Shown here piece by piece: positions 1,321 to 40,419 of a stretch of 64,000 nucleotides of DNA. The notes under the pieces are model-generated. The model saw only the letters and a program-made list of their open reading frames with translations. It was not told the DNA's origin and made no database searches. This stretch comes from Candidatus Caldifonticola tengchongensis (GTDB taxonomy: Bacteria > Sysuimicrobiota > Sysuimicrobiia > Sysuimicrobiales > Sysuimicrobiaceae). A program made the position numbers and the translations under genes. Each line of letters begins with the position of its first letter. Positions within the stretch are counted from its first letter, which is position 1. The stretch is from assembly GCA_031432545.1 (NCBI GenBank), contig JAVKGX010000003.1, positions 57,861 to 121,860 on the forward strand, written 5' to 3'.

Positions 1321-2403
1321 ATGCTGGCAGAGCAGCTGAACGGAATCGAGCAGCGGTACGCGGAGCTCAACGCGCTGTTGGGGGATCCCGCGGTGTTGGC
1401 GGACCCGGCCCGCTACCGTGCACTGGCGAAGGAACACGCCACGCTGGGGCAGTTGGTCGCACTCGTGCAGGAGCTGCGGCGGGTGAACCGGGAACGCGCC
1501 GACGCCGAGACGATGCTGGCCGACGGCGACGGAGAACTGCGCCAGCTGGCCGCGCAGGAGATCGCGCGGCTGGACGCGCGGCGTCGGGCCCTGCAGGCCG
1601 AGCTCGAGCAGCGGCTGGCGCCCCGCCATCCCCACGACGACCGCGACATCATCGTCGAGATCCGTGCGGGCGCCGGAGGCGAGGAGGCGGCGCTGTTCGC
1701 CGCCGATCTGCTCCGGATGTACACGCGGTACGCGGAGCGCCGCGGCTGGAAGACGGATGTCTTGGACCTGCAGCCGTCGGACCTCGGCGGCGTGCGGTCC
1801 GCGACGGTGGCGATCGCCGGAGAGGGCGCCTACAGCCGCATGAAGTACGAAAGCGGCGTCCACCGCGTGCAGCGGGTGCCGGCGACGGAAGCCGCGGGGC
1901 GGATCCACACCTCCACGGCGACCGTGGCGGTGCTCCCTGAGGCCGAAGAGGTCGACGTGGAGATCAAGCCCGACGAACTCGAGATCTCGACGTTCCGCGC
2001 CGGGGGTGCAGGGGGGCAGAACGTCAACAAGGTCGAGACGGCCGTGCGCGTCAAGCACCTGCCGACCGGGACGGTCGTCACGTGCCAGGACGAGAGGTCG
2101 CAGCACCAGAACCGCGAGAAGGCGATGCGCATCCTGCGGGCCCACCTGCTGGAGTTGCGCGAGCGCGAGCAGCAGGCGCAGATCGCCGCGGCGCGCCGCC
2201 AGCAGGTCGGCACGGGCGAGCGCAGCGAGAAGATCCGCACCTACAACTTCCCGCAAAACCGCGTCACCGACCACCGGATCGGTTTGACCCTCCACCGGCT
2301 GGAGTCGGTGATGGACGGAGACCTCGACGAGGTCCTCGACGCGCTCGCCGCGGCGGATCGGGCCGCCCGACTGGGACAGCCGGCGGCGAGCGGCGGAACA
2401 TGA
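1321..2403 (+). CDS. prfA: peptide chain release factor 1
   Basis: 360 aa with GGQ motif ([25 protein letters not shown]) and RF1-type domain order. Confidence 0.95.
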
Positions 2404-3383
2404 CGGGCCGGCGACCTCAACCTCCGATCGGTGCGCGGGCCGTCCCCTCGGACCCACCAACCGGCAAGGACATCCGGCCGGTTTCTTTCCGCGAAGCCTA
2501 CCTGTTCGGCCGCGAGCATCTGGCGGCGGCGGGCGTGGAGTCCGCGCCGATCGAAGCCGAGGTGCTTTTGCGGCACGCGGCGAGGCTGGACCGCGCCGGC
2601 CTGTACGTCCGCTGGACGCAGCCGGTCTCCGAGGCGGTCTGGCGGCGGTATGTCGATCTGCTCGAGGGCCGGGCGGCCGGTCGCCCCACGGCGTACCTGG
2701 TCGGGGAGCGGGAGTTCTGCGGCCTCGGGTTCGCCGTCGACGAGCGGGTCCTCATTCCTCGCCCGGAGACCGAGTTGCTGGTGGATGTGGCCCTGGAGGC
2801 GATCCGCGGGATCGCCGCACCGGTGGTGGTCGACGTGGGGACCGGCAGCGGCGCGGTGGCGGTGGTGTTGGCTGTGCGGCGCCCGGACCTGCGGGCCTAC
2901 GCCACCGACGTCTCGCGGGCGGCCCTCGAGGTGGCCTCTGGCAACGCCCGACGGCACGGAGTCGCCAGCAGGGTGACGCTGCTGGCAGGCCACGCCCTCG
3001 TGCCGGTCATCGAGCGCGGCGTGCGCGCGCATGCGGTCCTCGCCAACCCGCCCTATGTTCCGCGGCACGCACGCGACGAACTTCCGGCGGAGATCCGGGA
3101 TCACGAGCCTCCGGTTGCCCTGCTCTCTGAGGGTCCGCGCGGCACCGAGATCCACGAACGCATCGCCTTCCAGGCGCCGCGCGTTCTGCTCCCCGGCGGG
3201 ACGCTGGCGATGGAGGTGGCAGCAAAGTGGCATCAGGCCCAGGCGGTGGCGGAGCTGTTTGAGGGGCTCGGATTCGAACACGTCCGGATCCTGCGGGATC
3301 TCGCCGGGCTGGAGCGCGTGGTCGTGGGGACGTGGGCTATCGGGCGGCCCACCTCAGATCGATCACCTACGCCGACCCCGTGA
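2400..3383 (+). CDS. prmC: release factor glutamine N5-methyltransferase (HemK/PrmC)
   Basis: ATG 2400 overlaps the prfA stop (ATGA coupling) in the same frame as track ORF 2082-3383. NPPY motif (LANPPYVP) and SAM-binding VVDVGTGSG present. Confidence 0.9.
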
Positions 3384-3499
3384 TCGCGCGGCGCCGCTGC
3401 CCACAACTGTGAGAAGATTCCCGCTTGGGAGTCCAAACATACGATCGGTTGTATCGGATCCCGACGTGAAGTACCATCAACACGACTCAGCAGGGGGGA

Positions 3500-3964
3500 A
3501 TGGAGGTGAGGACGGTGAGGGTATCGCGGATCGTCGGCTTGATGCTCACGCTCGTCGTGGCTGCGTCCTTCCCCTTTGCGGTCTGGGGGCAGGAGAACGG
3601 CGAGGAACTCATCGTGGCCCGCATCAAGGCGGTCTACGGGGAGGACTTCGAGGACCTGGATGGGCTGATCGAGACGATGCGGGACGCCGGTTACGGCTGG
3701 GGCGAGGTGATCATGGCCCTGCATCTGGCGAAGCTCTCCGGGAAGAGTGTGGAAGAGATCATGGAGATGCGTGCCAGCGGTATGGGGTGGGGCGAGATCG
3801 CCATGGAGCTCGGCGTCCATCCGTCCCAGCTCGGTCTGGCGGTCGCCTACGTCATGTCCGAGGGCAAGTCTCCGCAGAATGCCGGCAAGCCCGAGACGAC
3901 GCCAGGTGGCCCGCCCTCCGGCACTCCCGGCGGTCCGCCGTCCGGGGTACCCGGCAAGCCGTAA
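3500..3964 (+). CDS. small secreted hypothetical protein with two GxGWGE(V/I) repeats and a Pro/Gly-rich tail
   Basis: 154 aa. N-terminal signal peptide (MLTLVVAASFPFAVWGQ). Internal repeat GYGWGEVIMALHLAKL / GMGWGEIAMELGV. C-terminal PGGPPSGTPGGPPSGVPGKP. RBS-like ggggggaatggagg before ATG 3500. High GC3 consistent with host coding. Confidence 0.55.
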   Translation: MEVRTVRVSRIVGLMLTLVVAASFPFAVWGQENGEELIVARIKAVYGEDFEDLDGLIETMRDAGYGWGEVIMALHLAKLSGKSVEEIMEMRASGMGWGEIAMELGVHPSQLGLAVAYVMSEGKSPQNAGKPETTPGGPPSGTPGGPPSGVPGKP

Positions 3965-3988
3965 CAGCAGACGGCAGGATTCGTGTAC

Positions 3989-4025
3989 GGAGGCCCGCGC
4001 GCTCGCGCGGGCCTCCGCCTTTGAG
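3989..4025 (+). terminator. GC-rich hairpin (12-bp stem ggaggcccgcgc / gcgcgggcctcc, 4-nt loop) followed by a weak U tract
   Basis: Perfect inverted repeat 3989-4016 then gccTTTg, 25 nt after the stop of the 3500-3964 ORF. The U tract is poor, so efficiency is uncertain. Confidence 0.4.
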
Positions 4026-4042
4026 GGCTATAATGGAAACGC

Positions 4043-4678
4043 ATGCCTCCCCTAACTTCTGCGGTGTCCGTCCTGCGTGTGACCCCCGATGCCCCCGCTC
4101 CACGGCGCGCCGTGGAGTTGCTCCGCACCGGCGGGGTGATCGTCTTCCCGACCGACACGGTCTACGGGCTGGGTTGTGACGCCACGGACGCTGCCGCGGT
4201 GCGGCGCGTGTTCGCGATCAAAGGACGCACCCCAGACCAGCCGGTACCCATCCTGCTCGCCGATCCAGACGACGCCGAGGGTCTTGCGTTCATCACGCCC
4301 GCTGCCCGCCTACTCATGGACCGCTTCTGGCCGGGCCCGCTAACGATCGTGCTGCGCGCCCGTGACAGGTTGCCCGACATCGTCACGGCGGGCACCGGAA
4401 ACGTAGGCTTGCGCGTTCCCGACCACGCGGTCCCACGCTCCCTCGCGCGCGAGCTGGGGCGGCCTCTGGTGGGCACGAGTGCCAACGTGCACGGCCAGCC
4501 TCCGGCCACCTCCGTCGTCCAGGTCCTCTCGCAGCTGGATGGGCGGCCAGACCTGATTCTCGACGGCGGGCGCTGCAGGTCGGCGGCCTCGACCGTGGTG
4601 GACTGCACCGCGCAGACGCCCCGCGTCCTGCGCCCCGGGCCGATCTCGGAGGCGGAGGTCCTGGCCGCGGCCGGGTGA
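4043..4678 (+). CDS. tsaC: L-threonylcarbamoyladenylate synthase, TsaC/YrdC/YwlC family (single-domain form)
   Basis: 211 aa with YrdC-domain motifs (VFPTDTVYGLGCDA, GTSANVHGQPP). Conserved prfA-prmC-ywlC neighbourhood. Confidence 0.85.
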   Translation: MPPLTSAVSVLRVTPDAPAPRRAVELLRTGGVIVFPTDTVYGLGCDATDAAAVRRVFAIKGRTPDQPVPILLADPDDAEGLAFITPAARLLMDRFWPGPLTIVLRARDRLPDIVTAGTGNVGLRVPDHAVPRSLARELGRPLVGTSANVHGQPPATSVVQVLSQLDGRPDLILDGGRCRSAASTVVDCTAQTPRVLRPGPISEAEVLAAAG

Positions 4679-5153
4679 AGGTTCGGTCCGAGGGCGAGGC
4701 GAAGTGAGCTGACGATGCGGATCGCCCTTGCCAGCGACCACGCCGGCTACGCTCTGAAGGAGGACCTCAAACGGATGCTGCGCGACCTCGGACACGAGGT
4801 GCGGGACTTCGGTACGCACGGGGAGGATCCCGTCGACTACCCCGACTTCGTCGTGCCGGTGGCCGAGGGGGTGGCGGCGGGCACATTCGACCGTGCGATC
4901 GTGATCGGCGGCACCGGAAACGGGGAGGCGATCGCAGCCAACAAGGTCCCCGGCGTGCGGTGCGCGGTGTGCTGGGAGAGCTACACGGCACGCATGGCGC
5001 GGGCGCACAACGACGCCAACGTGCTGTCATTGGGTGCGCGCGCGATCGGCGTCGAGGTGGCCAGGGATGTCGTTCGGGCGTGGCTGACGGCGGACTACGA
5101 GGGAGGCCGCCACGACGCCCGTCTCGCGAAGATCCGGGCCGTGGAGGAGAAGT

Positions 5154-6461
<1,308 letters not shown>

Positions 6462-7110: not shown

Positions 7111-7559
7111 CCCGCCCTACCTGGGACGAGTACTTCATGAGCATGGCGGCACTCGCCGCCAGCCGGTCGACGTGCCTGCGGCGCCGGGTCGGGGCGGTGG
7201 TGGTCAAGGACCGCATGGTGCTGTCGACCGGGTACAACGACACGCCGCGCGGGCGTCCGAACTGCGGGGAAGGGGGATGTCCGCGCTGTGCCGGGGAGGC
7301 ACCGCCGGGGACTGGGCACGACACCTGCCTGTGCATCCACGCGGAACAGAACGCCATCCTCCAGGCTGCGTATCACGGGGTGAGCATCGCCGGCGGCGCG
7401 CTGTACTGTACCCACCAGCCGTGTCTGGTGTGCGCGAAGATGATCGTCAACGCCGGTCTGGTGCGCGTCGTCTACGGGGGCGACTATCCCGATCCGGCCG
7501 CCGCACAACTGTTGCAGGACGCGGGCGTGGACCTGGTGCGCCACGGTGACGGCCGATGA
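7107..7559 (+). CDS. dCMP deaminase (CMP/dCMP-type zinc deaminase, ComEB-like)
   Basis: GTG 7107 overlaps the upp stop (GTGA). N-terminus (V)[22 protein letters not shown]. Zinc motifs HAEQNA and PCLVCAKMI. In frame with track ORF 6906-7559. Confidence 0.8.
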
Positions 7560-14559: not shown

Positions 14560-14798
14560 GAACTCAAGCGAGGAAGGGAAGCAGTAGGCGCCAGCAGCTC
14601 TCGCAGAGAACCGGAGCCGGTGCGATCCGGTAGAGCGAAGCGCTGAACCTCGTCCCCGAGCTTGCCGGGCGAAAGGTCGAGTAGTCCGGCACGCGGCCAG
14701 CGTAAACGCCCAACGAGGTCCAAGTTCTCCTGGGGCTTGGAACTAAGGTGGTACCGCGGGAGCCAACCCGTCCTTAGGTTGGCTCCCGTTGTTTTCCG
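14560..14798 (+). promoter_or_regulatory. T-box riboswitch leader with intrinsic terminator, upstream of ilvB
   Basis: Canonical T-box sequence aaCTAAGGTGGTACCGCGG at 14745-14759 overlapping the 5' arm of a perfect 11-bp terminator stem (gggagccaacc / ggttggctccc, 14758-14788) followed by gttgttttcc. AGAGA and GNUGA-like elements and an AGUA box lie upstream (14600-14700). About 230 nt from leader start to terminator. Confidence 0.8.

Positions 14799-40343: not shown

Positions 40344-40419
<76 letters not shown>

Follow-up and report, generated by a model that had tools for sequence, protein, structure and literature searches.

A small, probably exported protein with two GWGE repeats encoded between prmC and tsaC, and the broad uncurated family to which its core belongs

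By position, the closest described counterpart of the gene studied here is SpoIIR, which, together with ywlA/ywlB, occupies the equivalent slot in Bacillus subtilis. In both cases a small gene with a signal peptide, predicted in ours, lies between prmC and tsaC, and the surrounding order, prfA-prmC...tsaC-rpiB-glyA-upp, is Firmicutes-like. The likeness ends there, however: the protein encoded in our window, by which we mean the whole 64,000-nucleotide stretch of DNA analyzed, is modelled as all-alpha and has no Spore_II_R match, and the two are unrelated. The original prediction saw no features of SpoIIR in it, and with no Spore_II_R match at E<=1 in the Pfam scan, nothing speaks for a SpoIIR identity. 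By sequence, the recurring though weak similarity of what we call the GWGE module is to simple tri-helical helix-turn-helix (HTH) domains (HTH_38 PF13936, HTH_23, HTH_7 and DUF433 PF04255), which have the pattern G-x-x-x-x-E-I-A-x-E-L-G-V-x-x-S-x-L in common with helices 4-6 of our model. Unlike such domains, the window protein stays below every gathering cut-off, has a predicted signal peptide and an acidic pI, and carries its GWGE modules as tandem 30-aa repeats; among its relatives there are Cys pairs and partner domains of the extracytoplasmic kind. Homologous modules also stand at the C-terminal end of anti-sigma-like proteins with FecR and DUF5666 and of DUF5667 proteins (P0070, P0079 and P0014), whereas the window protein is stand-alone, without a transmembrane anchor or any of these domains. 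Finally, the de novo designed left-handed alpha/alpha toroid repeat proteins known as dTor (PDB 5BYO, 4YXZ and 4YY2) resemble it in that both consist of helix-loop-helix repeats, 30-33 residues long and capped in a similar way (SVEE...G...).

The ORF between prmC and tsaC is a real gene. Its dN/dS of 0.17-0.20 (Nei-Gojobori; against the orthologues of the relatives L004, L001 and L002), or about 0.18, points to purifying selection, its codon-position GC (0.67/0.47/0.86) is like that of prfA, prmC, tsaC, rpiB and glyA, and orthologues have been called independently in several assemblies. The native codon usage that had been proposed agrees with a GC3 of 0.86, within the 0.83-0.91 of the adjoining genes. 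Long chance ORFs are common in GC-rich DNA, and several in other frames overlap the locus, as is the usual by-product of 69% GC; yet there is next to no chance that the gene itself is a spurious ORF in GC-rich intergenic DNA. Against this speak the dN/dS, a GC3 pattern typical of a coding frame, a confident AF2 fold and the homologues, whose absence, together with a lack of expression, the original prediction had named as the mark of a spurious ORF and which reach E 2e-49 and fall into 1395 family clusters; the conservation data exclude it. The original proposal of a true gene coding for an exported small protein is thus supported by dN/dS, orthologues and signal-peptide-like features.

The placement of the start codon needs some revision. 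The ORF had been read as 154 aa long from ATG 3500, following the longest-ORF rule, and while the ORF stands, its start is most likely GTG 3515, giving 149 aa, because a perfect Shine-Dalgarno sequence (GGAGGTGA) lies upstream of the GTG, L004 reads ACG in place of ATG 3500, and the 99%-identical protein of a metagenome-assembled genome (MAG) is 149 aa long in both the NCBI and other gene calls. Immediately upstream of ATG 3500 there is nothing but a G-run. The ribosome-binding site that had been ascribed to the gene is therefore present, and its GGAGGTG is kept in L004 together with the GTG-AGG start. The features of the locus are collected in Table 1, where residue numbers follow the 154-aa count.

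Table 1. Features in and around the GWGE gene, in window coordinates
Feature	Position	Strand	Basis or remark
prmC, 5' neighbour	2400-3383		PrmC_N and MTS domains
Promoter-like pair TTGTAT (3449-3454) and TACCAT (3472-3477)	3449..3477	+	17-nt spacer; read from sequence
GWGE gene, longest ORF	3500..3964	+	ATG 3500; 154 aa by longest-ORF rule
Shine-Dalgarno sequence GGAGGTGA	3502..3509	+	Read from sequence; 5 nt upstream of GTG 3515
GWGE gene, CDS as placed	3515..3964	+	GTG start; 149 aa + stop
Predicted Sec signal peptide MRVSRIVGLMLTLVVAASFPFAVWG	3515..3589	+	Hydropathy profile; cleavage before Q
All-alpha core domain, six helices (modelled)	3599..3859	+	Residues 34-120; AF2 model, family-profile region
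Repeat motif 1, GYGWGEVIMAL	3689..3721	+	Residues 64-74; invariant among close homologues
Repeat motif 2, GMGWGEIAMEL	3779..3811	+	Residues 94-104; within the family's most conserved stretch
Disordered Pro/Gly-rich tail (predicted)	3860..3961	+	Residues 121-154; pLDDT about 50
Tail units PGGPPSGT/PGGPPSGV	3902-3949	+	Tail PGGPPSGT-PGGPPSGV-PGKP, ending GKP-COOH
12-bp GC-rich hairpin GGAGGCCCGCGC-GCTC-GCGCGGGCCTCC	3989..4016	+	Then GCCTTTG; terminator-like, short T run
tsaC, 3' neighbour	4043 or 4064 to 4678		Sua5_yciO_yrdC domain

The flanks of the gene suggest that it is transcribed on its own. The promoter-like pair upstream matches the consensus hexamers at 7 of 12 positions, too few for the promoter/terminator scan, which reports no sites at the locus. 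In L004, the otherwise diverged spacer keeps the block CGGTTGTATCGG and a -10-like TAGAAT with an 18-nt spacer, so that its form of the pair (TTGTAT-18-TAGAAT) has a better -10 than the TACCAT of the window. The possible promoter pointed out in the original prediction is accordingly there and has been kept in L004; only its coordinates (3448-3476) were one base off. The strong hairpin noted 3' of the gene is likewise real as a sequence feature: its fold z-score is -2.83, and the stem is kept with compensatory changes in L001, L010 and L004, in each followed by a short T-containing stretch. An intrinsic terminator is defined by a GC-rich stem and then a run of at least five T, and since only three T stand behind the stem, the terminator scan makes no call there; Rfam has nothing in or around the locus. 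As the promoter-like block, the Shine-Dalgarno sequence and the hairpin are all conserved, the gene appears to form its own single-gene transcription unit nested in the cluster. On the far side of the hairpin, the tsaC ATG at 4043 has no Shine-Dalgarno sequence in front of it but, 8 nt upstream, an exact TATAAT (4029-4034), and the tsaC mRNA could be leaderless; in the near-identical MAG, the NCBI call starts tsaC at GTG 4064.

A word-indexed protein search returned only seven close homologues of the window protein at 57-99% identity. None has a name other than 'hypothetical', and the best match belongs to a MAG labelled 'Armatimonadota bacterium'; a second such search, with a 40-sequence profile, returned the same seven and no names or domain data. 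Checking the same position in relatives, as had been proposed, we found the order prmC - gene - (tsaC) - rpiB - glyA - upp to be common to the close relatives L001, L004, L010 (Bacterium HR32) and L088. Equally small orthologues with 47-63% identity sit in unrelated contexts (P0006, P0010, P0012 and the proteins of L008, L009 and L011), and the position between prmC and tsaC is therefore confined to a single narrow clade. L004 (JGI Ga0484004_004064) has an intact GWGE gene but no tsaC in the stretch from there to rpiB (2989-3275), where a relic of 32 aa at 3111-3200, 56% identical to TsaC residues 17-48, is left. With only the closest relatives sharing the prmC/tsaC context, orthologues found elsewhere and tsaC decayed in L004, the position appears incidental, and the protein is probably unconnected in function to prfA and prmC (translation termination) and to tsaC (t6A synthesis). 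The window holds a single copy of the family (profile search, E 5e-36), and tblastn against plasmids gave no match to the window protein.

Some further observations concern the neighbourhood and its relatives. L004 also lacks the DUF1385 gene between rpmE and prfA. In the window, rpiB (4715-5194) and the longest glyA ORF (5154-6461) overlap by 41 nt, and the gene calls of the near-identical MAG have a similar overlap of 38 nt. The C-terminal fragment of a second family copy lies just upstream of P0006 (L002:77-277), and tandem family paralogues are found in L055, L074 and L087. Elsewhere in the window there are a T-box leader (14562-14778, + strand; 112 bits, higher than its gathering score) and, at 40344-40416 on the + strand, a gene for a tRNA. 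The T-box and the Firmicutes-like order prfA-prmC...tsaC-rpiB-glyA-upp would fit a kinship of this MAG lineage to Gram-positive-type phyla; the NCBI label for the MAG is Armatimonadota.

The N-terminus of the protein fits a signal peptide of the Sec/SPase I type. By inspection and hydropathy, a positively charged n-region (MRVSR) is followed by an 18-residue hydrophobic h-region (IVGLMLTLVVAASFPFAV), with a Kyte-Doolittle value of 2.83 over IVGLMLTLVVA, and by a candidate cleavage site with small residues at -3 and -1 (V-W-G|Q); orthologues carry V-F-A|Q, A-L-A|Q and similar sites at the same place. The signal peptide of the original prediction is in this sense recovered. Other routes fit less well: the protein is without any Cys and so has no lipobox for SPase II, and with no S/T-R-R-x-F-L-K motif and no RR pair in the n-region, it has no twin-arginine signal for Tat. 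Removal of the signal peptide would leave a mature protein of about 124 aa with a pI of about 4.6 and a net charge of -9; the core has -10 and the tail only +1. The Pro/Gly-rich tandem tail that had been described is present, although at the protein level only, as TRF finds no tandem repeat in the DNA of the tail; the number of units varies between orthologues.

The core is predicted to be a compact helical domain. In the AF2 model, built from an 8-sequence alignment, residues 34-120 have a pLDDT of 90-97, and helices span residues 31-46, 53-62, 67-80, 84-92, 97-103 and 109-119. Two GWGE motifs had been reported some 42 residues apart; both are found, and their spacing is exactly 30 residues (W67 and W97). 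The internal repeat is beyond chance: the 18-residue segments IETMRDAGYGWGEVIMAL and IMEMRASGMGWGEIAMEL have a local alignment score of 53, compared with 20.6 +/- 4.2 and a maximum of 42 among 5000 shuffles. Two tandem 30-residue helix-G(Y/M)GWGE-helix modules can be recognized in the core, and as its six helices are modelled with a pLDDT above 90 and Pfam and NCBIfam hold no catalytic-family match for the protein, we regard the domain as a non-enzymatic helical module. Searches of the PDB by sequence and profile and with Foldseek gave no natural solved relative, only chance-level matches or designed repeat proteins. The best PDB match by profile was dTor, at an E-value of 7e-7 summed over 10 individually insignificant repeats, and a designed three-repeat dTor was also the top Foldseek match, with nothing below its E of 0.22; we read this likeness as convergent helix-capping patterns and not as homology. 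Two further candidates were dropped: a UBA-like similarity (CBL-B UBA, E 0.06 in the PDB profile search) is at chance level, and an EF-hand reading of EDFEDLDG fails on inspection, its spacing misfitting the canonical 12-residue loop.

A further departure from the original prediction concerns the distribution of the protein, which had been thought lineage-specific. This was wrong, as the core domain belongs to a large, uncurated multi-phylum family. A search for the GWGE repeat had been suggested; with a profile made from the 92-residue core, 1.84 billion representative proteins yielded 1395 clusters with E<=1e-3, of which 153 have E<=1e-10, counted at the 50% identity level. The family is defined by profiles A2 and A6, which the window protein matches over a core of roughly 90 aa that includes the motifs G(Y/M)GWGE(I/V) and GxGWGxIAxELG; relatives at 25-57% identity align along the whole core. 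Among genomes taken one per GTDB species, 210 stretches were confirmed, with members in Bdellovibrio (including B. bacteriovorus), Desulfobacterota, Campylobacterota, Clostridia, Bacilli (Aquibacillus and Robertmurraya), Nitrospirota, Nitrospinota, Elusimicrobiota and a few Pseudomonadota. The most conserved stretch of the family reads MRxxGMGWGEIAxELGVHPSxLGL, and residues 71-108 of the window protein are 76% identical to proteins of Arcobacteraceae and Desulfopila. A clear match to a known family, the other outcome that was to count against a novel protein, did not turn up: the window protein and the small members stay below the cut-offs of all Pfam and NCBIfam models, so no curated family applies at threshold. 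The 20 relatives looked up by cluster are either nameless or called 'hypothetical protein', and we found no publications on the GWGE motif strings, on secreted HTH proteins or on the ECF/TPR/OmpA context described below.

The only similarity to curated families, and a point against the reading that we favour below, is to cytoplasmic DNA-binding HTH domains. In the window protein, HTH_38 (PF13936) scores 22.3 bits (E 1e-4) against a gathering cut-off of 27, other Pfam HTH matches have E>=0.1, and NCBIfam gives only an E of 0.12, to a sigma-factor model. In relatives with several repeats, the summed scores of HTH families become significant, and DUF433 is matched in 16 of 104 family members, with a best E of 1e-14. 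Since nothing but simple HTH families recurs among the similarities and these sum to significance in the multi-repeat members, the GWGE module is plausibly a diverged HTH-type hairpin. It hardly follows that the protein is a cytoplasmic HTH transcription regulator whose hydrophobic N-terminus is a mis-called start or a membrane anchor. The HTH_38 match and the weaker ones to other HTH families speak for such a regulator, yet 22.3 bits is under the cut-off, the hydrophobic N-terminus is conserved family-wide, no in-frame start with a Shine-Dalgarno sequence lies downstream of the hydrophobic segment, and both paired Cys and partner domains of extracytoplasmic type are seen in relatives; we find the idea scarcely credible. 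A regulator of this kind would be expected in the cytoplasm with a basic DNA-contact surface, and here we have a signal-peptide-like N-terminus, a pI of 4.6 and a charge of -9. Very unlikely, too, is an extracellular nucleic-acid binder resembling the helix-hairpin-helix (HhH) proteins of ComEA type, in which the G-x-G hairpins would contact the phosphate backbone. The G(Y/M)G hairpin motifs recur at a distance of 30 residues, a spacing reminiscent of (HhH)2 domains, and the sub-threshold HTH matches point the same way. Against it speaks the marked acidity of the mature protein (pI 4.6, core charge -10), and no HhH family is found in Pfam at E<=1; on its charge and with no match to an HhH model or to the fold of ComEA or RuvA domain II, (HhH)2/ComEA-like DNA binding was rejected. 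That the window protein binds DNA by any of these means is implausible.

The traits of the family as a whole point to a place outside the cytoplasm. An N-terminal hydrophobic segment is found in 140 of the 158 analyzed family sequences that start with M, and the window protein, with its hydrophobic N-terminus and low-complexity C-terminal tail, is typical in this respect. Members with several repeats (P0011, P0014 and P0070) have two Cys per repeat, and the fusion partners of the module include DUF5667 (11/104), DUF5666 (5/104), FecR (3/104), one PKD and one LysM; P0070 and P0079 are anti-sigma-like proteins in which FecR and DUF5666 come first and the GWGE modules last, at the C-terminus. In all 16 Bdellovibrio-type loci (L012-L065), the family gene, encoding roughly 170 aa, follows a gene for a protein of roughly 310 aa with a weak match to BBP2-like beta-barrels (e.g. 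L028:3910-5375), and this neighbour may be an outer-membrane protein. In L028, the family gene of B. bacteriovorus spans 4857-5375. From N-termini, Cys pairs, partner domains and gene contexts combined, we infer that the GWGE family proteins are extracytoplasmic.

A second recurring context raises the question of signalling. In 34 of 80 loci from GTDB representatives, the family gene lies directly downstream of a gene encoding TPR and OmpA-like domains, and in 28 of these 34, an ECF sigma gene is present as well. The cassette, ECF sigma followed by the TPR + OmpA-like protein and a GWGE protein with a long Gly/Asn-rich tail, occurs in loci within L015-L086 (e.g. L057:3597-5357 and L039:1618-4401) from Desulfobacterota, Campylobacterota and a few Pseudomonadota; its TPR + OmpA-like protein is sometimes extended N-terminally and possibly anti-sigma-like, and in L057, where the GWGE gene of Desulfopila aestuarii DSM 18488 spans 4626-5357, a weakly VKOR-like membrane protein comes after it. 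Together with the modules fused after FecR/DUF5666 in anti-sigma-like proteins and with conserved Pro-rich tail motifs, this context would suit a partner in envelope-stress signalling, acting in the periplasm or extracellularly, and not a passive adaptor: the protein or its Pro-rich tail would be a ligand or modulator of a sensor such as a TPR anti-sigma factor or a histidine kinase. Pro-rich motifs are typical ligands of TPR or SH3-type domains. In the window, however, no ECF/TPR cassette stands beside the GWGE gene and no sigma, anti-sigma or TPR gene adjoins it, the nearest two-component system begins some 3.6 kb off, at 7556, and what the ECF-linked proteins have in common with ours is the second module alone (residues 71-108), so that we consider this role unlikely for the window protein.

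The low-complexity tails differ by lineage, being Pro/Gly-rich here, Gly/Asn-rich in Desulfobacterota and Lys/Glu-rich in Bacilli. Pro/Gly-rich tails of variable unit number among orthologues, positively charged tails in 79% of the small members and the single LysM and PKD fusions might also indicate a spacer at the wall or surface, in which the Pro/Gly tail would span or contact peptidoglycan or an S-layer and the helical domain would be kept on the surface of the cell. The window protein has no sortase, SLH, LysM or lipobox signal that could anchor it, however, and with the tail at a net charge of only +1 and the core at -10, we judge the spacer distinctly unlikely. The tail ends in (K/R)P-COOH in 23 of 155 representatives (P0001-P0155), against 2.6 +/- 1.6 in shuffled tails, and no known sorting signal fits this ending; several relatives have a common tail motif, GKPD(W/H)(T/A)PG(G)PPxGxPG(K/R)P.

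Overall, we favour, with moderate confidence, the reading that the locus is a single-gene unit for a small, Sec-exported, acidic and non-enzymatic all-alpha protein whose role in the cell envelope is that of a binding or adaptor module. The locus would be transcribed independently, and cleavage of the signal peptide would release a compact six-helix domain with a flexible Pro/Gly tail; the domain would consist of two tandem 30-residue helix-G(Y/M)GWGE-helix modules, in a pattern resembling simple tri-helical HTH domains, and the family would comprise extracytoplasmic proteins with one to several such modules, which would make protein-protein or protein-envelope contacts in the cell envelope. 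Actual export, monocistronic transcription and the binding or adaptor role are deduced from sequence and model, and 'adaptor' is the default assignment for a helical repeat. A bolder reading, which we put forward tentatively and hold rather doubtful, is that GWGE is an undescribed, phylum-spanning, exported HTH-derived alpha-hairpin. The 30-residue repeat would have been re-used outside the cell as a recognition unit for envelope sensing, in cassettes with ECF sigma, TPR-OmpA-like and FecR-DUF5666 anti-sigma proteins, and the conserved Pro-rich tail, with its frequent (K/R)P-COOH terminus, would serve as a novel short linear motif for recognition or sorting.

What is new here is the widespread uncurated domain and not the position of the gene. 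The gene itself is of modest importance, encoding a small accessory protein, probably exported, in a housekeeping cluster of one hot-spring lineage. The domain, on the other hand, has no curated model, although its conserved stretch of 25 residues reaches up to 76% identity across phyla and it occurs in more than 1000 protein clusters, including those of Bdellovibrio bacteriovorus and many sulfate reducers. Defining the family would remove many 'hypothetical protein' labels and would guard against taking members that appear to be exported for HTH regulators; it would also draw attention to a recurrent gene beside ECF sigma and TPR-OmpA-like genes, which could be tested in culturable organisms.
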